Source of the DNA: Patescibacteria group bacterium | Lineage (GTDB): Bacteria; Patescibacteriota; Patescibacteriia; Magasanikbacterales; GWA2-37-8 | Direction of reading: 5' to 3' | NCBI GenBank assembly: GCA_004321885.1 | Contig: SCQK01000007.1 | Span: forward strand, 64,001 to 128,000 | DNA length: 64,000 nt | In this document: piece by piece, positions 5,673-58,824 of the stretch | How positions within the stretch are numbered: position 1 is the stretch's first letter | How the letters are laid out: every line of letters starts with the position of its first letter | Made by a program: the position numbers and the translations under genes | The notes under the pieces: generated by a model | The model's input: the letters and a program-made list of their open reading frames with translations, nothing else | Databases searched by the model: none | What the model was told of the DNA's origin: nothing

Positions 5673-5763
5673 AGGAGAGGGGTTAAGAGTAACTCCACCT
5701 ATGGTCGCAGCGCCCGAGCTGCTTTACAACCAAAAGAGAAACCACTATAATTGAAGTGTTTTT

Positions 5764-7455
5764 ATGTTACTACATGCGGATAACACGCTGGGAGTCGGAC
5801 AACCGGAAGGAAACAACCGGGTACGAAGGACGTCCCAGAATCCCCGCATGCGCGCAGTTGCAAAAATTTTTCTTCTTCTGGCCGGCTGGCTTATCGTCGT
5901 TTCCATTGTTTCCAATTCGTTTGACAACGACCTGGGCTGGCATTTGCGCTTTGGCCAAGACGCCCTAAGCGGCGATTTTCAGTACACCGACAGTTATACC
6001 TGGGGCTTTGCCGGGCGCGAGTGGGTAAACCACGAATGGGGGGCCGATATTTTATTTTGGATTATTTACAGCCGCGTCGGCTACTTCGCCCTGGCGCTTC
6101 TCATCGGCACGGTAATCTGGGCGGCATTTGTGCTGGCGCCTCTTATTTTTGCGCGTTTCAGTTTAGGCGCTCTCGCGATTTCGCTGCTCATGGCCCTGGC
6201 CGCGGGCTTTACTTTTGTCACGCGCGTCTCCATGGCGGCGCCGCTGTTTTTTGTTTTGCTCTGGTTTTCGCTGGAAAGAAAAAAATATTTTTTCCTGTGG
6301 CCGATTTTATTCTGGGCGTGGTCTTTTCTGCATGGTAGTTGGATACTGGGATTTATTTTAATAAACATTTATTTGGTTGGAGAAATAATTCCCTCCACTA
6401 TTAGAGCCTGCCCTGAACTTGTTTCAGGGGGAGGGACAAAAGGTGGAGTTGGCAAGAAGCTCTGCTGGCAAATCATTTCCGCGGCCGCGATTCTTCTCAA
6501 TCCGTACGGCATAAAACTCTGGCGCGAGGTGCTCTCCTATTTTATATACAGCGACTACAAGCGGCTGATTATTGAATGGCTGCCAAGCTACAGTTACCCC
6601 ATTCGCTGGTGGCCCATAATTATCGCGGGAGCGGCCGGCGTTTTGCTTTACCTGGGGTGGAAAAACAAAAAAGCGTCTTTGACCCACGTATTGTTATTTT
6701 TGGCCATATTTTTAGCCGCCATGCAATACAAGCGCAACAATATTTTGCTGACGCTCGTTTGCGCGCCGATTTTCGCAATAGCTTTGGAAGAAACAAAGAA
6801 GAAACTACTCTCAATTGCCATTCCGAACCCGAAGGGTGAGGAATCCCTTCGCCTTACGAGTAAGTTTAAGGGATTCCTCGCTCCGCTCGGAATGACAACG
6901 GCGATTGTCCTCTTCGCCGTCTCAGCCGTTTATTACCTTCCCCGCCTGCGGGCGCAAAATGACGTCTGGCAGGACAAAAATTTTTTGACCCGGCACGGCT
7001 TTCCGGTCAAAGCCGTTGATTTTGTAAAAAAACTACCGGCCGGAGCGAAAATTTTCAACGAATTCGGCTGGGGCGGTTTTTTTATCTGGCAAACGCCGCA
7101 AGTAAAAATGTATTTTGACGGACGGGGCGCGGCCACCTGGCGCGACGCCAATGGCGAATTCATGCTTAAAAAATATCTGCGCTACCTTGGCGAAAAAAAA
7201 CAGTTGCCCGAATTAAGCAAAACTCCGGCTGAATATATTTTGCTGGAAAAAAACAGGCTGGCCCTGCCGCCGCCCGGCTGGAGCGACAAACTGTTTTTCA
7301 AAAAAGAAAACTTGGCAAAAATAATGGAGCGCAAGCCGCCGTTGCTTGAAACCGACCTGACGAAAAGCAGTGATTGGAAACTGATTTACAGCGACGAGAT
7401 GACGAACATTTGGAAAAGAACCGCGGACATGAATTCCGGCTCAAGCCCGGAATGA
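5764..7455 (+). CDS. polytopic membrane protein, possible GT-C-type glycosyltransferase
   Basis: at least 10 hydrophobic helices; D-N-D-containing first loop (SFDNDLGWHLRFGQ); contains in-frame palindromic repeats at 6391-6440 and 6838-6897; the true start may be the internal Met at about 5845. Confidence 0.45.
   Translation: MLLHADNTLGVGQPEGNNRVRRTSQNPRMRAVAKIFLLLAGWLIVVSIVSNSFDNDLGWHLRFGQDALSGDFQYTDSYTWGFAGREWVNHEWGADILFWIIYSRVGYFALALLIGTVIWAAFVLAPLIFARFSLGALAISLLMALAAGFTFVTRVSMAAPLFFVLLWFSLERKKYFFLWPILFWAWSFLHGSWILGFILINIYLVGEIIPSTIRACPELVSGGGTKGGVGKKLCWQIISAAAILLNPYGIKLWREVLSYFIYSDYKRLIIEWLPSYSYPIRWWPIIIAGAAGVLLYLGWKNKKASLTHVLLFLAIFLAAMQYKRNNILLTLVCAPIFAIALEETKKKLLSIAIPNPKGEESLRLTSKFKGFLAPLGMTTAIVLFAVSAVYYLPRLRAQNDVWQDKNFLTRHGFPVKAVDFVKKLPAGAKIFNEFGWGGFFIWQTPQVKMYFDGRGAATWRDANGEFMLKKYLRYLGEKKQLPELSKTPAEYILLEKNRLALPPPGWSDKLFFKKENLAKIMERKPPLLETDLTKSSDWKLIYSDEMTNIWKRTADMNSGSSPE
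6391..6440. repeat. composite palindromic repeat (CCCTGAAC-TTG-TTTCAGGG core) inside a CDS, in frame
   Basis: near-identical copy at 7738-7795 inside comFC. Confidence 0.8.
6838..6897. repeat. family-A-variant palindromic element (GAGGAATCCC...GGGATTCCTC...CGGAATGACA) in frame
   Basis: related half-copies at 14483-14520, 15248-15285 and 39070-39105. Confidence 0.75.
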
Positions 7456-14596: not shown

Positions 14597-14723
14597 TTGT
14601 CTCACACATTAATAATGATTGTGAATAAAAACTGTGGACAAAACGCCTTGACAAAAAACTCTTTTCTTGATATATTAGATTCGGATAGTAACGATGAAAA
14701 GACCCTCGTAAGAAGATACGTGC

Positions 14724-15248
14724 TTACGGGGTGCTTTTTTTATACTCAACTTTATTCCTCAAATCACTAACAAAACTAATTTTGCCGCCGGCCACTTTCC
14801 GCAATAAGTACGAGCAACTGGACGGCGCGGGCGCGATCAAGTGGCAAAACTTATTTTGTTTTCGCAAATAGTCAACTAAACAATGAAAATCACCATCGCC
14901 GCTGACAATTACGGCCTGATCATAATTCTGATATTCTATCATCGTGTGTAAAACCAATTCGGCGTCACAATTCCCTTTTACTTCACCGTCTTTCAATATT
15001 AGAGTTGGTTTAAATATCAAAATGTAACCAACCTCCTGAAGAAATTTATACAACTCCTCATTGCCAAATAAAAAACCAATGAACATAAACGCCTTCGCGA
15101 CGCTATATTTGTCTTTCAAATACCTGCGAAAACGAAAATAATCCAGCTTCCAACCAATGCGCTGCATACTGAAATATAGATTCTGACTGTCTATAAACGC
15201 GAAATTGTTTTCTTTCATACTTCGTTTCCCTCCCCGCCCCACTGTCAT
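14724..15248 (-). CDS. NYN/LabA-like domain protein (predicted RNase)
   Basis: FIDSQNLY...KGNCDAELV...SGDGDF motifs. Confidence 0.65.
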   Translation of the reverse strand: MTVGRGGKRSMKENNFAFIDSQNLYFSMQRIGWKLDYFRFRRYLKDKYSVAKAFMFIGFLFGNEELYKFLQEVGYILIFKPTLILKDGEVKGNCDAELVLHTMIEYQNYDQAVIVSGDGDFHCLVDYLRKQNKFCHLIAPAPSSCSYLLRKVAGGKISFVSDLRNKVEYKKSTP

Positions 15249-28698: not shown

Positions 28699-31600
28699 TT
28701 ATTTGGGAGCCACGATGATGGATTTGGAGAAAGAAGTAAATGCACCAGTATCATCTGTACACTCATCTTTTCCTCCATTCCAAAAACCCTGATAACACCC
28801 CCCGTCCTTCCCACCCGGACAACTCCCGTTACACCACCCCCAGTTATCCTTGACCTGCACCTTGGGGGTGTATTTGCAACAACCTTCTTTGAAAGCGAGG
28901 TCGGACGGGCATTGAGAAGCCGGGACAAAGTTAGCACTGTCTTTGACGCACTGGTAGGAATAATCAGCTCGGAAGTAGGCGTTGTCGCAGGTTTTGTCCA
29001 CAATCTGGCCAAAGTTGGGGGCGATGTTTTCCGGCAGGCATTGGTCGATGTTTTTGCAGTCGGTATCAGAACCGACTGTCTGGCAGGTTTTCGTCATGGG
29101 CCTCCTTATCTCGTGTTTATCTTCCGGCTGCACATAGGCGTCGGTTACAATGGTGCAGCGATTTTCTTTCACATCCTGATTAAGCGGATTGGGTACACTC
29201 TCACATTTGCCATCCACCTTCCCTCGGTGATTGCGGAAGTATCCATCAAGGACAACCGGCGCCGAGCCATCGTTCCAGTCTATCTTTACATTCCTGATGG
29301 GCATTTGGTTCATATCGGCATAGCCGTAAAATTTGAGGGTAACGCGGGAGGGAGAGACCGGTATTTTTACGTCAGCGCTGGTTTTGTCGTTGAGGGTGAT
29401 GCCGGCTGGCCCTTCGGTGCAAATGCCGCCCTGACAGTTGACAGACAGGACTTTGGGGGCTTTGAGAAAATTACTTAATGTCTCGGTGCGGTTAATTCCT
29501 TTGACTTCGTATGCATCTGAATTATATCGCTTATATATACCGAGATTATCTAGAGCAAATAAATTGTTGACTTTGGCGAATAGACTGTCAAGACGCGACA
29601 CGGAATTTATGCCTGCCGGCAAACCCGCGGGGGCTGGTTTGGTGAAATCAAGAGTGCCGTCCGGATTGCCACTAATTGTTCTGTTGACATAGCCGCCCGC
29701 ACCTGTGCTGCTTTTCGCGCCATACGGAGCGCCCACAATGCTCTGGATGGCATTCTGCTGGCGCGGGCCATAAAGTAACCGCAGGTCTTCTTTTTCCAAA
29801 GAAGGAGGATTGTTGATGTTGAGAGAGCCAAATGGTTCGGTGAGAGTTTTGAAGATGTAATCCGAGCCAGAGCCGGAAAAAGAGACGGAATATTTGCTTC
29901 CCTCCCAAATCCGGTTGGTCCAGGCCGTGCTCTGCCTGTCGGCAACATCGGCGATTTGGTCGCAGTATTCTCTTAATCGCGCCGTCACTTTTATATTTAT
30001 TGGAAAATAAGATTGGCCCGACTGCTCCTCATTTGGCCACCAGCCAGGACCGCCGCCGGCCAAACATTTTGCCACACCGACTTTAATCAGCTTTTTGTCT
30101 TTGTCAAACACCAAAACCACTTCCAAAGATTGCTGTCTGTCTTCTTTGCCGTTATCGCACAAATCGCCGGCGTCTTTGGCGGTCACCTGCATAACACTGT
30201 CTTTCAAACTATCTCCGTATTCGGGAAAAAATCCGGACTGGTCTTTAATGTAGTCGCGTTGCAGAACCCCGGCTCCCGCGTCCCGGTTATCGGAGAAAAA
30301 TCTCATTATGGTGTAATCGTTAAATTGTTTGATGCGCGTTTCCGCCAGCGGCGGCCGCGTGTTGATGGGTTTCTCAAATATTAAAGAATGTTCTTTTTCC
30401 GTATCACACAGTTCGGTTGAGTTGTAAGCGTCTCCTTTCAGCGAACCATCCGCGTTTTCTTCCGCCACCACGCATCCTGATTTGCCCGCCTGGTCAATGT
30501 AATTTTTTCCGTACAATGTTCTGACCCGTTTCGTAATATCGCTCTTGGCGCCATTACGGATAATATATGTGCCGCGCACCACATTATTGTCACCGCCGAT
30601 ATTTATGAACATGTCGGCCTCAATTTCCACCTGGTCTATATCATACAAATGAATGTCGTAATCAGCCACTTGTGAAAAAGTAACTCTGTTAAATAGACTG
30701 CCATATTTCCAAGACGCGGGATTGGGGTCTTTATGGCCGGGAAAATTAAACTCCTGCGGGTCATCTGCTTTGGCGAACGGCGTATAACCGACCATTTTTG
30801 ATGAAACAGAACCTGGTTTGATTATCGTCTCTGCCTTCAATGAATAAACAATGCCCTGGGGCACGAGTGTTCTGCTAAACGGAGACGGCATCAATGGCAA
30901 AAGAGACACGCCATAGCATTCTGACGGGTCGCAAAAATAATGTGCGTCATCGCTATTTGTAAAATATTGACGCGGCTGTTGGTCGCTGCCGGGGACTTGA
31001 TTATAGAGCGACTCTCCGATTTTTGGATTCACAGTGCTATTGATTGTAAGGTCGTTGGAATAAAAGGCGACTATTTGGCCTACTACACTTTTATAAATAG
31101 TGGCGCATCTTTGAATCTTTTCCTTGCTACAAAACCTTCCAAAAAAAGTCGGATAAGCGCTGTAATCGCCCCTATTCCCCGCTTCTCTGGCGCAATAATA
31201 CCGTCCATAGGCCGCGGGCTTGTAGCCGGCTTCGTCAAACTGGTTGTCCACGTCCAATGCCCCATTCAAGGTCTGCACCGGCAGCCAGGACAGGCACTGA
31301 AAGTTGGTCTGCTCGGAATTTATCGGGCGAGACATATCTTTTTCCAGACAAAAACCACGCCAGCCGATGAAGCGGTTTTCTTTTTTCTTGATTTCGCAAG
31401 TGCCGGATGTCTGGCCCGCGCAATCATCGTCAGTCGCGCAGGGCTTGGTGTCATAAGAGCCGCCCAGACAATAGCCCTGGGGCACGGCATTACCTTTGTT
31501 CGGATTGGTGTAGCCCCAGTATTTTACAGTGCTGTCTCCGTAATTTACCTTCGTGTAATCGCATTCGCAGGCAGAAGCGGTTTTGGTGTCCGTGGTTTCA

Positions 31601-34600
31601 ATAGCGCCGCTCTCATTGCACTTGTTGGCATTGACAAAGGCCTGGGATTTTACCAGATTGGCGGTGTTGGGATAGGGCGATTCTTTTTCCGGATAGGCGC
31701 GGCAGGTGTGGTTGGGCGCCTGGTCCATGATATTGCTGTCCGGGCCAGACGGGCTTTGCATACAGAGGTTGTTTTTGCAAATGCCGGCGCTGTTTTTGCC
31801 GCAGGGTTTGTTGTTGGCGCCCTGGGCGCAATTATAATCATTTGGCTTGGCCGGGTCTTTGCAGTTTAGCCCGCCGCAAGGAATCATTTTCACCAAACGC
31901 CAGTCCGGATTTTTGCTGTCGCCTAAATTGCGCTGGTCCAATTCTTCGGGCGGATACAAGCCCAGCAAACTAAAACCAGAATAGTCCAGTCCCTTCCACG
32001 AGGTGTCGCGGCCGCGGTAAATGTTGTCGCTTAAAACCTGGCCCGTGTATTCATGGTCAAAATCCACCCACTTTTTACAGTTGGTAATGTCGCCTTCCGC
32101 GGCTTTTTCCGGGGCCTGGGCGCACCGGCCAATGCCGTCGCAGACTTCTTTGAACTTGCTTTCTTTTTCGCTCCACACGCGGTGCGATGACTTGCATTGC
32201 AGCCACTCGCCGCACTCGCGGTCGCGCACCACTTTGAGCACGGTGTTGGCGTTGTTTACCCCGCCTTTCTTGGAAACATCTATGGGTTGAACCAGCGCGT
32301 AATTTTTGGCCGCGCTGTCGGCATAGGTGGCGGCCGTGTCATAGAGCTTGTTTGGCCAGTCGGTTTTGTCAAATAAAACACAGCCGGCTTTTTCGCTCAC
32401 TTGTCCAACGCATTCTTTAGCCGCGGATTTTAATTTTTCATCGTTGATGATGTAATAGGCCTTGTCGCTGTCGTTGTGGTCCACATACTCGGTGCAGCCG
32501 CTTTGCTGAGCCGGACATTCGCCCACGAAATTTTTGTACCGGCCTTTGTCGCCGTAAGACCACAGGTCATAAAGATTCCCGGCTTTCAAATAATCCGGAT
32601 AGCAGGGCGACAAATCCTTGTCAACGCATTTCGGGGTCGGGTCGGTCGGAGTTAGTGTGATGCCTTTGGCGCAATCGCTGTCGCTGACGCAATATTTTTC
32701 CAGATTGGTCTTGCTGTTCCCGTCGCACTGGCCCACACCTTTCCAAAACCAGCCGCTCGCTTTATTGCCAGCTCCCCCGGGCAAGGTTACATCAGCGCGA
32801 TAAGAACAAATTTTCTGCCCAATAACAACCGGGTCTTTGAAATAGACCGTGCCGTCCGGAGAATTATATTCGTCACAACCCTCGGCCTCGCTTTGGCAAA
32901 GATTTTTGTCATAGCCATCGGGGTCGTTTTTTACAAGAACCGTTTCGTAAGCATCGCCAGACGGAGTGGATTTTTTCTTACCGGCGTAAGTACAGCCGAC
33001 GTCAATCTCGTTGCAGTGGGCTGATTTGTCCGCCACCAAATATATGGGCTTGTCGGCCCGGGTGTCGGGGGGAATGAAAACCGTGGAAGCGGTGACTGTT
33101 CCGCCCGCGGTTTTGATGTCAGCTAATTCATATCCAAACACATTGACATAACAGCCCTTTTCTCCGACTGGAACCTGACAGGAAAATTCCTGGCTGGCCT
33201 GGATTCCTGCTTGCGCAGGAATGACAATTTTTACCTTTGTCCCCTCGGCTCCGGACAGCCACACATTGTACGCGCGCGGGCCCGAGTCCTCGGGCGTGTT
33301 GTATGTGTCGTACAGCGCAGTACAGCCAATGGCGTTTTCGCGGCACAAATTGCTAAAGCCCGTGAGATAAAACGGCGTATTGCGGGAATTGGCGTAAGCT
33401 GAACAGCCCAGGGCTTCGCCCGGCAGATTATCCGTGGGGTCGCTGTCGCAAATCTGGTCAACCTTGAGGGTTTTTTTGACCAGATAAATATAGTCGGTAA
33501 CTTCTTTCAAAGAAATGTTGTCTAAAAATACGCTGCCGACGTTGGCAAAGGAAAAAGTAAGGCTGGCCGCGTCTGTCTCGTTGACTTCCACTGGGCCGAG
33601 ATGATAATAGCGCCAGACATCGCTGACGCTCACCGCGCCCAGCGCGAATGAGGCAGTCTTGCCCAAAGCAACCGCAAGAGTAAGCGCGCCCGAGGACTTG
33701 GCCCAGAAAGTCAAATCATAACTCTTGCCGGTTTTGAGCGCCACATCTTTTACCGCTGTGCCGGCTGTGCCGCCGCCTGAATTTAAGACAGAAAATCCCA
33801 ATGAGTGCCCGCCCGGCCTGGTTGACTCGGCAGAAATGGCAATGGAACTGTTGCCCCCCGCCCAGCCAGTCAGGGCCGCGGCCTGAACTCCGGCTTCAAA
33901 TTCTTCGTAAAACACATTGCGCGTATTGTTGCCGGCATTGCCCTTGTACTCGCGGCAGGAGTTGTGCTGGGCCTGGCACGATAGGCTGATGCCGGCGGTG
34001 TTGTAGGCCGAGCCAGGCAGGCCATAGTAAAAGCAGGCGCCGTCTTTGTATTCGCCGTTTTGAAAACAATTAGCGCCATTGTAAAATTCCGGCTCGTTTA
34101 GGCGATACGGGGCGCAGGACTTGTCCACCGGAATGGTTTTGGCCAGCAGGCGGTAATAGACCGCGCCCTTGTCATCGTTGAATTGACGGCAGTCGGCGTC
34201 GGCCGTGCCGGCCTTGTAAAGCGCTTCGCTGCATTTCGCGTCATAACCAGTCAATTCGGCCTGGGTTTTGTACCAGTACTTTGGCGCCCCGGCCGCGACC
34301 GCATCTTCCACCAGGGTGTAGGTTTTTAATTGAAACCCGCCATAGGTGGAGCCTTCGTAGGTAAAGAAAACCTTGCCCTTGTCTTTTTCGGGCAAAACGC
34401 ACGGCCGCAAATAGGAAAAAAATTCCACCTGCTCGGTAAGACCGGCCGTGGTGGTGGACAGATTGGTAAAACTAGCGCACCCGGTCGCGGCCGACGGGCA
34501 CGAGGCGCCGGAGGCAGGAATAATATAAGCCAGGTCTTGGCCGGCCGAATAATTGCTGGGCATCTCGCGATAGCTGGCATAGCCCACGCACTTGGCATCG

Positions 34601-36885
34601 CACTGGTCGTTCCAGGTGATTTCGCCCTCGGTAATTGTAGCGGCCGTAAACTGGCCGGGCACGCGGTCGCCTAAATAGCTTTGCGGGCTATACCAGTCGC
34701 ACCCCACTTCGCTGGGCAAACACACCTGGGCATAGTTAACGCAATCTTTCTCCGGTTTGATGTTGGTCAAGTCAGCCACGGTTTCGGGCCAGTCTGTTGG
34801 CGGGGTGCCCGGGTTGGCATCGTAGCACTTCAAATAGTACGGCGCTTTTTTTAGAGACAATTTTTCAGTGGTACTAACGGTCTTGAAAATGGCACAGCCG
34901 GCTGAATTGGCCGAACAGCCCGAGGAGCCGGAGGATAAATTTTTATTGAAATAAATCGCGGAATTTTCGCCGATAGTTAGGTCGTCTGTGTTTTGCGCCA
35001 GCCAGGTGGACGAGGCGGCCGGGGTCTCTGCGCTTTTTTTCAGGCTATAAGCAGAACAGCCCACATTGTCTTTTTCACAATAGCCCGTGTCCAAGGTGCG
35101 CTGTAAATAGGCTGTTTGCGCGCCCGTGGTTTTGTTGGTAAAGGCCAGACAGGTGCGGTTTTGCGGCTTGCATTGGCCCGCGTCAAAACGCCAGACATTT
35201 TTCTCGCGCGAGCAATAGCCATAGGTGGCACAGTTGCCGTCTTTGTCATAGGCCACGCACGCAGACAAGTCCACGCATTCTTCCATTCTTTCGGGGCCGT
35301 CGGCCATCAGCAGATTGGGGCCGCTGGCCAGGGCGTTACAGCGCGAGGCCGGCGCTTTCAGCACCCAGTTCGGGTCTATCAAACGGCAAAAAGGCTTATT
35401 CACCGGGTCGTTGTCAATGACTCCGGAGCTGTTTTTATTGCAGTCATTAAACCCGTCCACCACTTGTTTTAATGTCCAAGGCTTGTCCGGATTGCTGTTT
35501 AAGGCCGCGATTTCAAAACCAAGCGGCAGGACGCGCGCCTTGCGCAGTTTTTTGATGTTGGAATAGCAGTAGGCCTGCTGATAACAGGCACGGTCCGTGT
35601 CTAAGGAATTATCCGGCGGAATCAGCTTCCAGTCGCCGTGCAGGCCCGGCCCGCCGGCTCCTCTTTGCAGGGCTTCGGCAATGGTGAGGGGCTTGCCGCC
35701 GCTGGCCTCCTGGGCCGCGCCCACCAGGCCCTCGTCGGCCGCGCAATTGTTTTGCGCCGGAGATTCCGGACAGCTGGAGAGCTCGGCCAGGATGTTGTAG
35801 CGCTCTTGCACCGTGGTTTTGGGCGTGAGCAATTCGCTGTACATTGTCTCGGCTTGGCGGCGGTCGCTTTGCCCGCCCACCGCGATAAAGTTCTCCGCGC
35901 TTGGACCGGCGCCGCCACCGCCGCCCTCATCGTAGCCGATGCCAAACGGAAACATGCCCTTGGACAGAAAATTTTTCACCATTTCCCCGGCCAGGGTGTT
36001 TAAGAACATTGAGATGGTGGAAGGAATAATTTGGAAAGTGCCTGAACCAATGGCCTGGCCCGCCATTTGCTGGCTCATTTTTTGCTGTTCCGATGGGGTC
36101 AAATTTTCCATTGTTTTTTTGGTGGCCTGGGCCGGCGTTTTTATTGCTCCGGAAATTAAAGACTCCACTCCCTTCATACCCTGACCCTCCTGGCGCTTCA
36201 AAAGAGCTTCATTTTTTTCTTCCATTATTATATTATCTATTTTCGCCCTTGAATCCATGTAAAGGCCGAGGTCGGTTTCTTCCACTTTAAGCGAGGCGTT
36301 GAAAACCTGGTCAAAGTTGCCCTCGGCCAGACCGCCGTAGCGGCTTTTCCAGGCCTCGCCGCCCCAATTTTTGACAAAGGAATTGAAATCGCAGGCCGGT
36401 TTGGCCGGTTCGCCATATTGAAATTTCAGCCCGATGCGAAAAGCCAGGTCAATTTTTATGTCCGGAATTTTGCACAAATTCAAACCAAGGGGCTTGCCCA
36501 ATTCTTCTATGGCCTTGCCAAACGCGTTGCCCCCGACGTTTTTCATATAGCTTCCCCAGCCGTCTTTGAAAGCCAGGCCGCTTTGGCCCTTGCCCCCGGC
36601 GGCCAGATACACAGCCGTGTCATAAGCAATTTTGCGCATGAAATATGAGGTAGCTTGCATGGCCGCGCTCATCACAGCCACCTGGGTGCCCTTTATTATT
36701 TTATCTTTTATTTGTTTGGCCAAATCCGGAATGTCTTTGGTGATAATGGCGGGCCACGCGGCTTGGGCCGTGCGCGGAAACAAAAAAGAACCGGCGAGGG
36801 TGGTAGCCAGCAGAATTACTGCAAGTATTGTGGCGCTGATTTTTTTCATACATTTGTCATTGCGAGGAGTGGAGCGACGAAGCAA
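28699..36885 (-). CDS. giant secreted Cys-rich surface protein (2728 aa)
   Basis: signal peptide MKKISATILAVILLATTLAGS...AQA; uninterrupted 8.2-kb ORF; many Cys/Gly/Asn-rich segments. Confidence 0.8.
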   Translation of the reverse strand: MLRRSTPRNDKCMKKISATILAVILLATTLAGSFLFPRTAQAAWPAIITKDIPDLAKQIKDKIIKGTQVAVMSAAMQATSYFMRKIAYDTAVYLAAGGKGQSGLAFKDGWGSYMKNVGGNAFGKAIEELGKPLGLNLCKIPDIKIDLAFRIGLKFQYGEPAKPACDFNSFVKNWGGEAWKSRYGGLAEGNFDQVFNASLKVEETDLGLYMDSRAKIDNIIMEEKNEALLKRQEGQGMKGVESLISGAIKTPAQATKKTMENLTPSEQQKMSQQMAGQAIGSGTFQIIPSTISMFLNTLAGEMVKNFLSKGMFPFGIGYDEGGGGGAGPSAENFIAVGGQSDRRQAETMYSELLTPKTTVQERYNILAELSSCPESPAQNNCAADEGLVGAAQEASGGKPLTIAEALQRGAGGPGLHGDWKLIPPDNSLDTDRACYQQAYCYSNIKKLRKARVLPLGFEIAALNSNPDKPWTLKQVVDGFNDCNKNSSGVIDNDPVNKPFCRLIDPNWVLKAPASRCNALASGPNLLMADGPERMEECVDLSACVAYDKDGNCATYGYCSREKNVWRFDAGQCKPQNRTCLAFTNKTTGAQTAYLQRTLDTGYCEKDNVGCSAYSLKKSAETPAASSTWLAQNTDDLTIGENSAIYFNKNLSSGSSGCSANSAGCAIFKTVSTTEKLSLKKAPYYLKCYDANPGTPPTDWPETVADLTNIKPEKDCVNYAQVCLPSEVGCDWYSPQSYLGDRVPGQFTAATITEGEITWNDQCDAKCVGYASYREMPSNYSAGQDLAYIIPASGASCPSAATGCASFTNLSTTTAGLTEQVEFFSYLRPCVLPEKDKGKVFFTYEGSTYGGFQLKTYTLVEDAVAAGAPKYWYKTQAELTGYDAKCSEALYKAGTADADCRQFNDDKGAVYYRLLAKTIPVDKSCAPYRLNEPEFYNGANCFQNGEYKDGACFYYGLPGSAYNTAGISLSCQAQHNSCREYKGNAGNNTRNVFYEEFEAGVQAAALTGWAGGNSSIAISAESTRPGGHSLGFSVLNSGGGTAGTAVKDVALKTGKSYDLTFWAKSSGALTLAVALGKTASFALGAVSVSDVWRYYHLGPVEVNETDAASLTFSFANVGSVFLDNISLKEVTDYIYLVKKTLKVDQICDSDPTDNLPGEALGCSAYANSRNTPFYLTGFSNLCRENAIGCTALYDTYNTPEDSGPRAYNVWLSGAEGTKVKIVIPAQAGIQASQEFSCQVPVGEKGCYVNVFGYELADIKTAGGTVTASTVFIPPDTRADKPIYLVADKSAHCNEIDVGCTYAGKKKSTPSGDAYETVLVKNDPDGYDKNLCQSEAEGCDEYNSPDGTVYFKDPVVIGQKICSYRADVTLPGGAGNKASGWFWKGVGQCDGNSKTNLEKYCVSDSDCAKGITLTPTDPTPKCVDKDLSPCYPDYLKAGNLYDLWSYGDKGRYKNFVGECPAQQSGCTEYVDHNDSDKAYYIINDEKLKSAAKECVGQVSEKAGCVLFDKTDWPNKLYDTAATYADSAAKNYALVQPIDVSKKGGVNNANTVLKVVRDRECGEWLQCKSSHRVWSEKESKFKEVCDGIGRCAQAPEKAAEGDITNCKKWVDFDHEYTGQVLSDNIYRGRDTSWKGLDYSGFSLLGLYPPEELDQRNLGDSKNPDWRLVKMIPCGGLNCKDPAKPNDYNCAQGANNKPCGKNSAGICKNNLCMQSPSGPDSNIMDQAPNHTCRAYPEKESPYPNTANLVKSQAFVNANKCNESGAIETTDTKTASACECDYTKVNYGDSTVKYWGYTNPNKGNAVPQGYCLGGSYDTKPCATDDDCAGQTSGTCEIKKKENRFIGWRGFCLEKDMSRPINSEQTNFQCLSWLPVQTLNGALDVDNQFDEAGYKPAAYGRYYCAREAGNRGDYSAYPTFFGRFCSKEKIQRCATIYKSVVGQIVAFYSNDLTINSTVNPKIGESLYNQVPGSDQQPRQYFTNSDDAHYFCDPSECYGVSLLPLMPSPFSRTLVPQGIVYSLKAETIIKPGSVSSKMVGYTPFAKADDPQEFNFPGHKDPNPASWKYGSLFNRVTFSQVADYDIHLYDIDQVEIEADMFINIGGDNNVVRGTYIIRNGAKSDITKRVRTLYGKNYIDQAGKSGCVVAEENADGSLKGDAYNSTELCDTEKEHSLIFEKPINTRPPLAETRIKQFNDYTIMRFFSDNRDAGAGVLQRDYIKDQSGFFPEYGDSLKDSVMQVTAKDAGDLCDNGKEDRQQSLEVVLVFDKDKKLIKVGVAKCLAGGGPGWWPNEEQSGQSYFPINIKVTARLREYCDQIADVADRQSTAWTNRIWEGSKYSVSFSGSGSDYIFKTLTEPFGSLNINNPPSLEKEDLRLLYGPRQQNAIQSIVGAPYGAKSSTGAGGYVNRTISGNPDGTLDFTKPAPAGLPAGINSVSRLDSLFAKVNNLFALDNLGIYKRYNSDAYEVKGINRTETLSNFLKAPKVLSVNCQGGICTEGPAGITLNDKTSADVKIPVSPSRVTLKFYGYADMNQMPIRNVKIDWNDGSAPVVLDGYFRNHRGKVDGKCESVPNPLNQDVKENRCTIVTDAYVQPEDKHEIRRPMTKTCQTVGSDTDCKNIDQCLPENIAPNFGQIVDKTCDNAYFRADYSYQCVKDSANFVPASQCPSDLAFKEGCCKYTPKVQVKDNWGWCNGSCPGGKDGGCYQGFWNGGKDECTDDTGAFTSFSKSIIVAPK

Positions 36886-41014: not shown

Positions 41015-41123
41015 AAATCATGGCGACAGACCCATCATACATCAAAATATCCATATTGACAATCAGGAACGATTGCCATACTATATTTGAAACTCAAGGC
41101 TCATTCCCCCAAGGAGGGATTAT

Positions 41124-41285
41124 ATGAAAACTCTGTTGTGGGTGATAATGATGGGCGGGCCATTTCTGATTCTGTGTAAGGACAGGTGGCTCATCTTCGT
41201 TGGCGCCATGATTATCGGCGCCTGGATTGTCGGCATTCTGGGTGCGGGCGTGGCCAGCGGACGCTCGCCGCAAGACCCGGAATAG
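41124..41285 (+). CDS. small membrane protein (53 aa)
   Basis: AAGGAGGG RBS 6 nt upstream of ATG; two hydrophobic helices; followed by a terminator. Confidence 0.45.
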   Translation: MKTLLWVIMMGGPFLILCKDRWLIFVGAMIIGAWIVGILGAGVASGRSPQDPE

Positions 41286-41299
41286 TCTCTATCGTTCGT

Positions 41300-41330
41300 G
41301 CCTCGCGCCACCCCGCGAGGCGTTTTTTTT
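41300..41330 (+). terminator. rho-independent terminator
   Basis: CCTCGCG-CCACC-CCGCGAGG followed by T8. Confidence 0.6.
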
Positions 41331-55013: not shown

Positions 55014-55790
55014 TTATTTAAACAACTCCAATAATTTTTTATGCAAAACCGGATTGGCGACTATAATATCACACTCGCCTCTCTTCCACTCCTCTCCAAA
55101 ACTGTTTGTCCATTTGGCTCCGGCTTCGGTGGCGATAACATACGGCGCCAAAAAATCATGATAAAAACCGGCGTTGGTCACGACCGCGTCTATGCGGCCC
55201 GCGGCCAAATGGCACATGGTTAAAATTGTCCCCATATTATGTAGCCAGCACCCGGTGTCGCCGTTTATATTATTCCAAAAACGCACATAATCCTTAAATC
55301 TTTTTTGCCCGTTTCCGCAACCCACCGCGCCCTGGCTGAAAATCAAAAAACAATGCTCCACCTTATCGTAATTTCCAACTTTAATCCGCTCCCCGTTCAA
55401 GTACGCCCCCTCGCCTTTTTGCGCCCAAAACAATTCATCATTCATGGCATCGTAAATCGCGCTCAAGTATGGCGTTCCATTTTTTGTCAGGCCGACCATC
55501 ACGCACCACATCGCCACATGGTTGGCGAAGTTACGTGTGCCGTCTATTGGGTCTATCACCCAGGTATGCTCGGCCCCCGGATTTATTTCCTCTTTTCGTT
55601 CTTCGGAAATTATTCCGTGGTCCGGATATTTTTCCAAGATTTTTTCTATCAAAAATTTCTCCACTTCCGTGTCCGCTTCGGTAATTACGTCCGACGGATT
55701 TGATTTGACGCCGCTTTTGACCCCTTTCAAATAATATCCCTTGGCCAAATACCCGGCTTCTTTAATGGTGGATTTTACAAATTCAAGCAT
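55014..55790 (-). CDS. inositol monophosphatase-family protein
   Basis: [12 protein letters not shown] motif. Confidence 0.75.
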
Positions 55791-55895
55791 ACTTTATACC
55801 CCACCCTGTGTCCCTCCCCTAAAAGGGGAGGGGAATGTTTGCGTGCCTACATTTTATCGCAAACAGGGCTAAAAATCAAATTACGCCCGGATAAA

Positions 55896-55924
55896 TTGAC
55901 CTAACTGCCCAGTTCGTTTATACT
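55896..55924 (+). promoter_or_regulatory. sigma70-like promoter (TTGACC-17nt-TATACT)
   Basis: well-spaced hexamers on the plus strand in a minus-strand gene neighbourhood. Confidence 0.5.
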
Positions 55925-55930
55925 ATTGCT

Positions 55931-56182
55931 AAGCGTGGTGTGCTGTCTGTCGCTTATCAGCGGCTGAAAGCCCCACACAACACTCCAACGAGGAGGAACA
56001 ATGAAAGTCGGCAACAGAGCAGGCCCGGCCCAGAGCCGAGCCAACAACACGCGCTGATCGCAGAAGCCAACCGCCTCTTCGGGGCAGGAGGTGAAAATGC
56101 ACTGGCCGTGACAAACACGGACGGCGTAGGCACTGTGACGGAGCAGGACCAGGGGGCGGTCTCGACGACGCCCCTTTTTTTA
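55931..56182 (+). ncRNA. candidate small RNA or micro-ORF transcript (GC about 62%)
   Basis: promoter, then about 250 nt containing SD-ATG micro-ORFs (56001-56057 encoding MKVGNRAGPAQSRANNTR; 56097 encoding MHWP), ending in a GGGGCG...CGCCCC-T7 terminator at 56152-56182. Confidence 0.4.
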
Positions 56183-56192
56183 ATCTCAGCTA

Positions 56193-56313
56193 AATTAAAA
56201 CGGAGGGTATATATAATTTTTGTAGCGGCCATCGCACCCCCGCGGGGCAGCGGTCGCCGCAGGCGACCCTGTTTGGCCGCAAAAAAATTATATATACCCT
56301 CCGTTGTTTTAAT
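56193..56313. repeat. long hairpin element with conserved about 55-bp core (GCGGCCATCGCACCCCCGCGGGGCAGCGGTCGCCGCAGGCGACCCTGTTTGGCCGC) and 28-bp perfectly paired outer arms
   Basis: abuts the trxA stop; a second copy at 56698-56804 has the same core but different, still perfectly complementary arms. Confidence 0.7.
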
Positions 56314-56634
56314 TTACGCGTACTTCTCCAGCATCTCTTTCAACTTCTCTTTCTGCACCCCGCCCGTCAGCTGGTCCACTATCTGGCCGTCCTTGAAAAC
56401 CATAAACGAAGGGATACTCAACACACTATACTGCGCGGCCGTGTCGCCGTTCTCGTCCACATTCATCTTGCCGATTTTAATGTTCTTGCCCTCAAATTCC
56501 TTGGCCAATTCTTCCACTATCGGCCCCATCATCTGGCACGGCCCGCACCACGGCGCCCAAAAATCCACAAACACCGGCTGTTTGGATTGCAAAACCTCCT
56601 CGTTAAAATTTTTGTCGGTAAACACGTTGTCCAT
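56314..56634 (-). CDS. trxA: thioredoxin
   Basis: WAPWCGPCQ active site, 106 aa. Confidence 0.9.
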   Translation of the reverse strand: MDNVFTDKNFNEEVLQSKQPVFVDFWAPWCGPCQMMGPIVEELAKEFEGKNIKIGKMNVDENGDTAAQYSVLSIPSFMVFKDGQIVDQLTGGVQKEKLKEMLEKYA

Positions 56635-56648
56635 ATTTATTTTTTTCT

Positions 56649-56682
56649 GGATTCCCCCGTACTTAGTCGGGGGAATGACAGC
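56649..56682. repeat. family-B palindrome in the trxA 5' region
   Basis: identity. Confidence 0.85.
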
Positions 56683-56697
56683 TTGTGTTTAATTATT

Positions 56698-56804
56698 AGC
56701 AAAGTTTTGTGATTTTTTTCGCAGCGGCCATCGCACCCCCAAGGGGCAGTGGTCGCCGCAGGCGACCCTGTTTGGCCGCAAAAAAAAATTCACAAAACTT
56801 TGCC
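56698..56804. repeat. second copy of the conserved-core hairpin element (between the infB stop and trxA)
   Basis: see 56193-56313. Confidence 0.7.
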
Positions 56805-56805
56805 T

Positions 56806-58824
56806 TTAACTTAACACCAACTTTTTCTCCTTTTCCTCTTCCTTGTAACACTCCAGCACATCATCTATCTCCAATTTTAATTTACCCTCAAACTGCGCCC
56901 CGCACTCGCTACCCTCGGGCACTTCGTTCAAAATCTGCTTGGCCACCTGCAACTGCGACAACTTACCCAAGCCGATAATCTCTTCCCCGCGCTTTACTCG
57001 CGCTTTACAGCCCTTCTGCAGTTTGCCCTGTTCCACGCGGCCGCCGACTATCATATTGCCCTTGCCGGTGCGGAAAATCGCCACCACCTTGAACACCCCG
57101 AGTTCAGTAGTAATTTTTTCCGGACTCAACAACTTGCCCATTTCTTCTTTGACGAAATCCAGCAGGTCGTAAATTATTTTGTACTCATTATACACTAATT
57201 TTTTATCGCGCGCCATTTCTTGCGCCACCGGGTTGATGGTAACATTAAAAGCAAAAAGCATGGCGCCGGCGGCTTCGGCCTTGGCCACGTCATCTACCGT
57301 CACATTGCCCAGGCCCTTGCCCACCACGCGCACGCCCACCTCGTCATTTTTAATTTTTCCCAGCGAACCGATAATCGCTTCCAGCGAGCCGAGCGTATCG
57401 CCCTTCACCACCACGTTCAAAACCTTCTTTTGCTCGTCGCTTTCAGCCGCGCCCAGGGCAAAAGTTTCTTTTTCCGCGCCCATCTGCTTATTTTTTTTCT
57501 CTTTTATGTCAATGGCCTTGGCCCCGGCGGCCGCGGCCACGTCCAAAATATCCCCCACGGCCGGCGCCACCTTAAATCCCAGAATGCGCGCCGGACAGCT
57601 GGGCGGGGCCGTCAGCAAATTTTCTCCTTTGTGATTTTTCATGGCCCGCACCTTGCCGTAAATCTCGCCGTTTATCACCAGCGGGTCGTTCACGCGCAAA
57701 GTGCCGGTCTGCACCAAAATCGTGGCCACCGGGCCTTCGCCCTTGTCCACGTGCGCCTCAATGACCGTGCCCGCGGCCGAGCGGTCCGGATTGGCTTTAA
57801 TGCTGTCGGCATGCACGTCGGCCACTAAAAGCAACACATCAAGTAGCTTATCTATGTGCAAATTCTGTTTGGCGGAAATTTCCACCATGGGCGTGTCCCC
57901 GCCCCACTCCTCGCCTATCACTCCGTTTTGCGACAAATCAACGCGCACCTTTTGCGGGTCAGCTCCCTCTTTGTCAATTTTATTGAGCGCCACCACGGTC
58001 GGAATTTTGGCGGCCTTGATAATGTTTATCGCTTCCAAGGTTTGGGGCTTGACGCTGTCGTCGGCCGCCACCACCAGAATGGCGATGTCAGCCACCTTGG
58101 TGCCGCGGCTGCGCATCACCGTAAAGGCCTCGTGCCCGGGAGTGTCTATAAATGTCAGGGGGGATTTTTCTTTGGTTTTGGGATTGGTCCAAATCACCTG
58201 ATAAGCGCCGATGTGCTGGGTAATGCCACCAGCCTCGGATTCCATGACATTGGTGCGTCGAATAGCGTCTAACAATTTTGTTTTACCGTGGTCAACGTGC
58301 CCCATCACCACGATAACGGGCGGGCGGCGCGTGGTAGCGTCCGCGGCCAAAATTGATTCCAAATTATTTTCGTGCGCCGAGACTGCTTCGGTTTTTTGCT
58401 CGGGTTCGCGCACGGTAAAACCGAATTCCTGCGCCATCAGCACGGCCGTGTCATGGTCCAGGCGCTCGTTTTGCGCAGCCAAAATTCCGTTTTTCATGAG
58501 TTCAACGATAAGGCCGGTAACCGGCATCTGCAAAATATCGGCGAATTGGCGCACGGTCAGCTGGTTTGGTATGGCCACGCTGGCGCCGCTCGTCTGGCGC
58601 GCCTCTTTTTCCAGCTCTTTTTGTTTTTCTTTTTCCTTGCGCTCGCGCTCTTCCAGCACGAACTTTATCCGTTTCCAGGCGCGCTGAATCTGCTGGGCCA
58701 CGCGGTCATCCACTTTCACGGCCCGAGCGCCGATATCAAAACCAAACTCTGGCAAAATTTGCAAAAGTTTTTGGGGGTGGACTCGGAGTTGTCTGGCCAG
58801 TTCGCTTACGTTCATAAAGCTCAA
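56806..58824 (-). CDS. infB: translation initiation factor IF-2
   Basis: GHVDHGKT, DTPGHEAF and NKID GTPase motifs, 672 aa. Confidence 0.9.
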   Translation of the reverse strand: MSFMNVSELARQLRVHPQKLLQILPEFGFDIGARAVKVDDRVAQQIQRAWKRIKFVLEERERKEKEKQKELEKEARQTSGASVAIPNQLTVRQFADILQMPVTGLIVELMKNGILAAQNERLDHDTAVLMAQEFGFTVREPEQKTEAVSAHENNLESILAADATTRRPPVIVVMGHVDHGKTKLLDAIRRTNVMESEAGGITQHIGAYQVIWTNPKTKEKSPLTFIDTPGHEAFTVMRSRGTKVADIAILVVAADDSVKPQTLEAINIIKAAKIPTVVALNKIDKEGADPQKVRVDLSQNGVIGEEWGGDTPMVEISAKQNLHIDKLLDVLLLVADVHADSIKANPDRSAAGTVIEAHVDKGEGPVATILVQTGTLRVNDPLVINGEIYGKVRAMKNHKGENLLTAPPSCPARILGFKVAPAVGDILDVAAAAGAKAIDIKEKKNKQMGAEKETFALGAAESDEQKKVLNVVVKGDTLGSLEAIIGSLGKIKNDEVGVRVVGKGLGNVTVDDVAKAEAAGAMLFAFNVTINPVAQEMARDKKLVYNEYKIIYDLLDFVKEEMGKLLSPEKITTELGVFKVVAIFRTGKGNMIVGGRVEQGKLQKGCKARVKRGEEIIGLGKLSQLQVAKQILNEVPEGSECGAQFEGKLKLEIDDVLECYKEEEKEKKLVLS

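Follow-up and report, generated by a model that had tools for sequence, protein, structure and literature searches.

A short transcription unit on the plus strand of an otherwise minus-strand region raises the question of whether a Patescibacteria genome encodes here a small RNA, a micro-protein or nothing functional at all. We analysed a 64,000-nt stretch of DNA (the window) from a Patescibacteria (CPR) MAG with Candidatus Magasanikbacteria-like relatives; its IMPase is identical to an NCBI protein, and the best other matches are annotated as Magasanikbacteria. The unit lies in a 523-nt gap between the genes for IMPase (55014-55790, minus strand) and thioredoxin (trx, 56314-56634, minus strand), with leuS and comEC on one side of the gap and infB and rny on the other. 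The original prediction, made from the letters alone, described a plus-strand unit among minus-strand genes, and leuS, IMPase, trx and infB are indeed all encoded on the minus strand. It had also argued that the unit is not a leader, since no plus-strand gene lies downstream, and both the gene layout and the sequence signals agree with this. The sole open plus-strand frame (55940-56692) crosses the terminator and then runs antisense to trx. All of the sequence features described originally were found, with positions exact or off by one or two bases.

The unit starts with the promoter that had been proposed, TTGACC-17-TATACT (55896-55924, plus strand), which is of the sigma-70 type, matches the consensus at 10 of 12 positions and would start transcription at A55931/55932. 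A second promoter-like site, TTGATT-17-TAAAAT (9/12 matches; 55851-55879, minus strand), would serve IMPase-leuS-comEC and stands back-to-back with the first, so that the plus-strand promoter and the minus-strand site (55879-55851) form a classical divergent layout with the IMPase operon. Promoter-like sites with at least 10/12 matches number 39 in the 128 kb of strand sequence (both strands of the 64-kb window), and one such site alone is therefore weak evidence. Correctly spaced consensus promoters also precede tRNA-Ser (2117-2144) and the genes that start at 5764, 23415, 41014, 41124 and 59333, which indicates that the sigma-70 consensus holds in this host.

At the distal end we located an intrinsic terminator (56151-56181, plus strand) composed of a GC stem (56151-56174/6; -14.7 kcal/mol) and a run of seven T (56175-56181), matching the hairpin and T7 first placed at 56152-56182. 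A terminator scan with a loop limit of 8 missed it for that reason only. The terminator works in the plus direction only, which implies plus-strand transcription at the locus.

Other expression signals in the window deserve mention. The regions upstream of most genes are AT-rich and have no Shine-Dalgarno (SD) sequence, and some consensus promoters are separated from the start codon by only about 6-20 nt (5723-5751 and the ATG at 5764 are one such case), a spacing that suggests leaderless or very short-leader mRNAs in this host. At 14648-14741 (plus strand), TTGACA-17-TATATT (11/12) is followed about 25 nt on by a hairpin and T7 that overlap the stop of a minus-strand gene (14724-15248). The site may yield a transcript of about 58 nt, or the promoter may be a chance match beside a bidirectional terminator. 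The window also holds a giant ORF of 2728 aa (28699-36885, minus strand).

The segment is GC-enriched, less so than first stated: the GC content of 55931-56182 is 60.3% (A65 C74 G78 T35) instead of 62%, which does exceed the window mean of 49.4%, but mildly, and many coding stretches in the window are GC-richer. Its low U content (14%) is the stronger oddity. A U-poor sequence has few stop codons, and several frames on both strands are open as a result. This composition explains why both a 91-aa minus-strand ORF (56232-55957) and the plus-strand frame from 55940 onward are open across the unit, and the idea that one of these is the real feature of the locus has next to no chance of being right. 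The codon-usage odds of the open plus frame are borderline (0.04, against an in-frame 5th percentile of 0.048) and the other five frames across the unit score as non-coding. However, the plus frame has no ATG and, as noted, runs through the terminator, the ATG of the 91-aa ORF sits within a repeated hairpin core (see below), and neither frame is called as a gene. None of three translated frames, two minus-strand ORFs and the open plus frame, matched Pfam. A search of 5.8 billion protein clusters returned no homologue of either fully open frame, and HMMER found no homologue of the open plus frame among 1.84 billion representatives.

Inside the unit, the clearest signals are two pairs of SD and ATG, both of which had been pointed out originally as leading into an 18-codon ORF and MHWP-stop. 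SD1 (GAGGAGG, 55990-55996) ends 4 nt before the first ATG, a short spacing, and mini-ORF1 (56001-56057, plus strand) encodes MKVGNRAGPAQSRANNTR in 18 codons followed by TGA (56055-56057), with RAGP at residues 6-9. SD2 (AGGAGGTGA, 56086-56094) precedes the ATG at 56097 of mini-ORF2 (56097-56111), which shares the frame of ORF1 and reads MHWP followed by TGA (56109-56111). The unit has exactly two ATG and two GGAGG, and after every GGAGG an ATG follows at 4-5 nt. Of 20,000 dinucleotide shuffles, 0.03% contained two or more GGAGG-N4/5-ATG pairs and 2.1% contained one or more; the whole window holds just 15 such pairs on both strands. An SD is seen at about 5 of 35 real genes in the window, most genes having none. 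The two pairs are non-random. Judging from the sequence, this tilts the picture towards an mRNA-like, micro-ORF or leader-type transcript over a structured non-coding RNA, and the unit would resemble a short mRNA rather than a structured housekeeping RNA.

The coding content is modest. The codon-usage odds of ORF1 are neutral (0.10, which over 18 codons is uninformative), and its peptide is hydrophilic, basic and featureless, with no hydrophobic stretch; it does not resemble the short hydrophobic membrane peptide that marks type I toxin-antitoxin systems. Neither the NCBI nor the Logan annotations call an ORF in the unit, and about 180 nt are non-coding besides the 18- and 4-codon ORFs.

Folding of this one sequence (minimum-energy and centroid) predicts a 5' hairpin at 55933-55978 (plus strand) and treats the two start sites differently. 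SD1 pairs partly with CUCC at 55983-55986 (unpaired probability 0.4) and AUG1 is predicted to be accessible (0.8). In contrast, SD2 is predicted to be nearly all locked (unpaired probability 0.05) in a hairpin (56072-56093) in which CGCCUCUU (56072-56079) pairs with AGGAGGUG of SD2 (56086-56093) with pair probabilities of 0.72-0.96; the sequestering arm begins 14 nt past the stop of ORF1. Three stretches, 55996-56006, 56013-56018 and, immediately before the terminator, 56145-56152, are predicted to be single-stranded. The overall fold is not significantly more stable than shuffled sequences (z -1.55 with the terminator and -1.45 without it).

The Infernal/Rfam search that had been proposed as a check assigned the unit to no family. 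Rfam 15 at gathering thresholds detected two tRNAs in the whole window and nothing else. At E<=10 with relaxed filters, the 551-nt region 55780-56330 returned just two hits, far under their own gathering scores: isrD (E 0.24), which falls on the neighbouring hairpin, and Xoo2 (E 8.1), which falls on the terminator. The original view that the unit is not tmRNA, SRP RNA or RNase P RNA agrees with these Rfam results and with ARAGORN, which found no tmRNA (tRNA-like domain and tag reading frame) in the window. Closer inspection of the defining elements gave the same picture. A 6S-type closing stem is not predicted, as only 0.09 base pairs are expected to join the first 40 nt to the final 60 nt, and the best 5'/3' duplex of the unit (-30.7 kcal/mol) was equalled by 90 of 300 shuffles. 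For the RNase P P4 helix (GAGGAAAGUCC-type strand and its 3' complement), GAAAGUCGG is present in the unit, which has no CCGAC or CGACUU, and the RNase P covariance models had no match at E<=10 in the 551-nt region. The covariance search for SRP (4.5S) RNA was also negative at E<=10, and the domain IV motif was not found by eye.

A 6S, RNase P, SRP RNA or tmRNA so strongly diverged in CPR that it escapes the standard models would share with the unit its size, its stand-alone signals and a housekeeping neighbourhood (leuS, trx, infB and rny). Unlike these RNAs, the unit has no covariance-model match and none of the defining structural elements, and it is not conserved in relatives, where such an RNA should be detectable; it is absent even from the syntenic site of the closest one. 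We regard the housekeeping-RNA reading as largely refuted, with very little chance left.

Two further ideas about the RNA were tried and rejected. A CsrB/RsmZ-type sponge for CsrA is not suggested by the GGA motifs (6 against 6.1 expected, P = 0.61), several of which lie inside stems. An internal duplication of two modules (AGGAGG..AATG..GGC / ACRGAGCAGGMCC) was seen by eye, and 476 of 1000 shuffles align as well; the motif pattern derived from it matched only unrelated gene starts in IMG/VR. Duplex prediction against gene start regions, in search of sRNA targets, yielded only unrealistic long-range duplexes.

Conservation was to decide against the original prediction if none could be found, and this is largely the outcome of searches by several routes, none of which returned a homologue. 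Apart from an identical Logan contig of this same organism, no further copy of the unit was found. Using nhmmer, we found no match to the unit in all the relatives' loci examined. A phage or plasmid origin was considered and dropped, since blastn against phages and plasmids gave nothing beyond 28-nt chance matches. Translated scans of the JGI metagenomes and IMG/VR with six patterns, which reach DNA of at least about 85% identity, detected nothing similar. A scan of genome contigs with the IMPase protein matched only a distant archaeal locus.

The gap between trx and IMPase is itself variable. In the closest relative (L002; IMPase identity 69%) the order infB-trx-IMPase-leuS-comEC is kept; the trx-IMPase gap, about 200 nt long there, lacks the unit and holds only a long hairpin. 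Other relatives carry a glutamate dehydrogenase, a DUF4349 protein, unknown ORFs or, in L006, a 258-aa gene in the same slot. The L006 ORF (3106-3882) has about 66% GC against a genome average of 48%, no Pfam domain and its own SD, is divergent from IMPase and shows, by eye, a hairpin and T-run at its 3' end. This GC-rich, divergent ORF makes the slot look like an insertion hot spot for foreign cassettes. We also considered that the unit is a remnant of the relatives' slot genes (glutamate dehydrogenase, DUF4349 and unknown ORFs) and abandoned the idea, as tblastn gave noise only.

Several hairpins adjoin the unit. A very stable long hairpin follows the unit and the trx stop (56186-56320; z -9.2 and -9.7). 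It lies outside the transcript and is probably a bidirectional terminator or backstop. It is one of two extremely stable long hairpins (z -8.3 to -9.7), one after the trx stop and one after the infB stop (56186-56320 and 56690-56806). Their outer stems are AT-rich and differ in sequence, but they share a near-identical 56-nt GC-rich three-way junction cap, GCGGCCATCGCACCCCC[GC/AA]GGGGCAG[C/T]GGTCGCCGCAGGCGACCCTGTTTGGCCGC. In the closest relative, the same hairpin architecture with unrelated sequence follows trx (L002 2325-2450). We tried the 56-nt core as a route to closer relatives and gave it up: it has no match in IMG/VR, and its 14 matches in the JGI metagenomes are all unrelated high-GC contigs.

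A second, REP-like hairpin, CCCTCCCC-N5-GGGGAGGG, occurs six times in the window (12914, 13311, 41341, 49617, 55812 and 58828) against 0.01 expected and is absent from about 50 kb of the relatives' loci. One copy lies in the IMPase 5' region, adjoining the promoter of the unit, and another adjoins a small-ORF unit at 41 kb. A further copy is found just upstream of the TTG start of infB, and its 3' arm could at the same time be a sequestered SD.

That small-ORF unit (41056-41330) is a second stand-alone plus-strand unit in a minus-strand region. It has a TTGACA-17-TACTAT promoter back-to-back with a minus-strand promoter, an SD (AAGGAGGG), a hydrophobic 53-aa ORF (MKTLLWVIMMGGPFLILCKDRWLIFVGAMIIGAWIVGILGAGVASGRSPQDPE, 41124-41285) and a strong intrinsic terminator. 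The 53-aa ORF is called by a gene caller and forms a singleton cluster (orphan) in the protein collection. The two units share divergent back-to-back promoters, a plus-strand position in a minus-strand region, a strong GGAGG SD, a strong terminator, a neighbouring REP-like hairpin and orphan status. They differ in coding content: the 41-kb unit carries a convincing 53-aa ORF, whereas only ORFs of 18 and 4 codons are present here.

Among known systems, transcripts with a small ORF or a dual function include SR1/SR1P of B. subtilis, SgrS/SgrT of E. coli and RNAIII/hld of S. aureus, all conserved within clades and with demonstrated targets or peptides. Like these, the unit is a stand-alone element in the range of about 200-500 nt that has its own promoter and intrinsic terminator and a short ORF with a ribosome-binding site in RNA that otherwise does not code. 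Unlike them, it is an orphan known from sequence alone, and its ORF is much shorter (18 codons). In translation-attenuation leaders of the ermC and cat type, a short leader ORF comes first and the SD after it is hidden in a hairpin. The same order of a leader ORF with accessible SD and a hairpin over the next SD is predicted here from a single sequence. In contrast to erm and cat, the second cistron has 4 codons and is followed by a terminator instead of a structural gene, and no alternative pairing that would free SD2 was identified in the unit. The unit would be, at best, a relic of such a leader.

The RAGP of ORF1 gives a possible link to ribosome arrest, in which ribosomes halted at Gly8/Pro9 would refold the hairpins further along and in this way control SD2 or read-through of the terminator. 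The SecM arrest motif has the same RAGP as its C-terminal core, and ORF1 contains one of the RAPP/RGPP/RAGP cores that characterise arrest peptides. The motif is reported to be strongly depleted from the proteomes of bacteria and to be capable of supporting arrest in several contexts (PMC12992588). By chance, RAGP would occur in 0.17% of random 18-mers of the same composition and any of six RAPP-like motifs in 0.8%, and the sequestered SD2 does follow ORF1. However, RAGP was noticed post hoc. The arrest peptides known so far need the adjacent N-terminal region in the exit tunnel, and in known cases the motif is near the C-terminus and the regulated gene lies downstream in the same orientation (PMC12992588). 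In ORF1 the motif is in the middle, with 5 residues before it and 9 after, and downstream there are a 4-codon ORF and two terminators and no plus-strand gene, so that the defining context of arrest peptides (C-terminal core, tunnel region and downstream same-strand gene) is lacking. ORF1 also has no localisation signal, which, with the absence of a downstream regulated gene, sets it apart from RAPP-like and SecM-type arrest peptides. We consider an arrest leader very improbable. Two bolder readings are together very improbable as well: a self-contained ribosome-sensing RNA in which a pause at RAGP would remodel the SD2 lock and report translation or secretion status with no structural gene attached, or the founding member of a Patescibacteria-specific class of sRNA that would have escaped notice because the databases lack sister genomes.

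We tentatively favour, at a probability of about 0.4, the reading that the unit is a lineage-specific accessory cassette in a variable slot, whether as a micro-ORF gene or as a leader-like relic left by an accessory gene that has been lost. It is framed on the plus strand by a promoter of the type correctly placed before tRNA-Ser and several genes and by a strand-specific terminator, and its two SD-ATG pairs within 252 nt, rare among shuffles, stand in an SD-poor window. AUG1 is predicted to be accessible and SD2 sequestered, although this rests on folding a single sequence, and no fold-stability signal points to a structured RNA. The 41056-41330 unit, of the same design, carries a clear ORF. 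In relatives the slot is variable, and the L006 slot gene has the same divergent orientation. Against a cassette, the lack of conservation means that neither ORF1 nor the RNA has support from purifying selection, and ORF1 itself is unremarkable in codon odds, SD spacing, peptide and annotation. A relic in particular should descend from some lost gene, and tblastn against the relatives' slot genes revealed no trace of one. A trans-acting non-coding sRNA of about 250 nt, acting through base pairing or protein binding, is a possible but rather unlikely alternative. Its SD-like sequences would be pairing or stabilising elements (for example through protective binding of 30S) and would not serve peptide synthesis. 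The stand-alone promoter-terminator unit, its typical sRNA size, the predicted single-stranded stretches, including the one right before the terminator, and the absence of a protein predicted by gene callers all fit such an RNA. The unit belongs to no Rfam family, though, its fold stability does not exceed that of shuffles, its GGA motifs show no enrichment and there are no homologues in which covariation could appear; moreover, an RNA acting purely by pairing leaves two perfect SD-ATG pairs unexplained.

It is likewise conceivable, if on balance doubtful, that the unit is non-functional DNA, that is, a decayed remnant of an acquired element or a spacer in a recombination-prone slot. In that case the promoter would match by accident or as a side effect of the divergent IMPase promoter region, and the terminator would be left over or merely insulate trx. 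The empty site of the closest relative, the different slot content in every relative examined, the lack of any homologue and of a structural or coding signal, and the abundance of 10/12 promoter-like sites in the window all favour this. A joint chance origin of promoter, two SD-ATG pairs and strand-specific terminator in the correct order is nevertheless unlikely, and the comparable unit at 41056-41330 carries a plausible gene.

If the unit is an accessory cassette, RNA polymerase would start at the 55896-55924 promoter, back-to-back with the IMPase-leuS promoter, and make an RNA of about 250 nt ending at the intrinsic terminator (56151-56181). The long hairpin that follows trx would act as a backstop that keeps transcription from running antisense into trx. 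Translation of the 18-codon ORF would begin with ribosomes binding to the exposed SD1-AUG1. The second, near-perfect SD-AUG would stay locked in the hairpin that starts 14 nt past the ORF1 stop, and would open a 4-codon ORF only. Such a layout, leading from a leader ORF through a sequestered second ribosome-binding site to a terminator without a structural gene, may fit a micro-ORF gene or a leader-like remnant.

As it stands, the unit is an unconserved singleton and a candidate small gene. The label of sRNA or micro-protein gene stays a candidate one because neither conservation nor a structural signal was found. In this respect the unit also serves as a caution that promoter-to-terminator units in variable slots need comparative or expression support before they are labelled as sRNAs. 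Patescibacteria genomes are tiny, so that each non-essential cassette is notable. If expressed, the unit would join the very short list of candidate small RNAs and micro-ORF genes described in Patescibacteria, and it would indicate that a genome largely lacking SD sequences keeps strong SD-driven initiation for a few accessory small genes.
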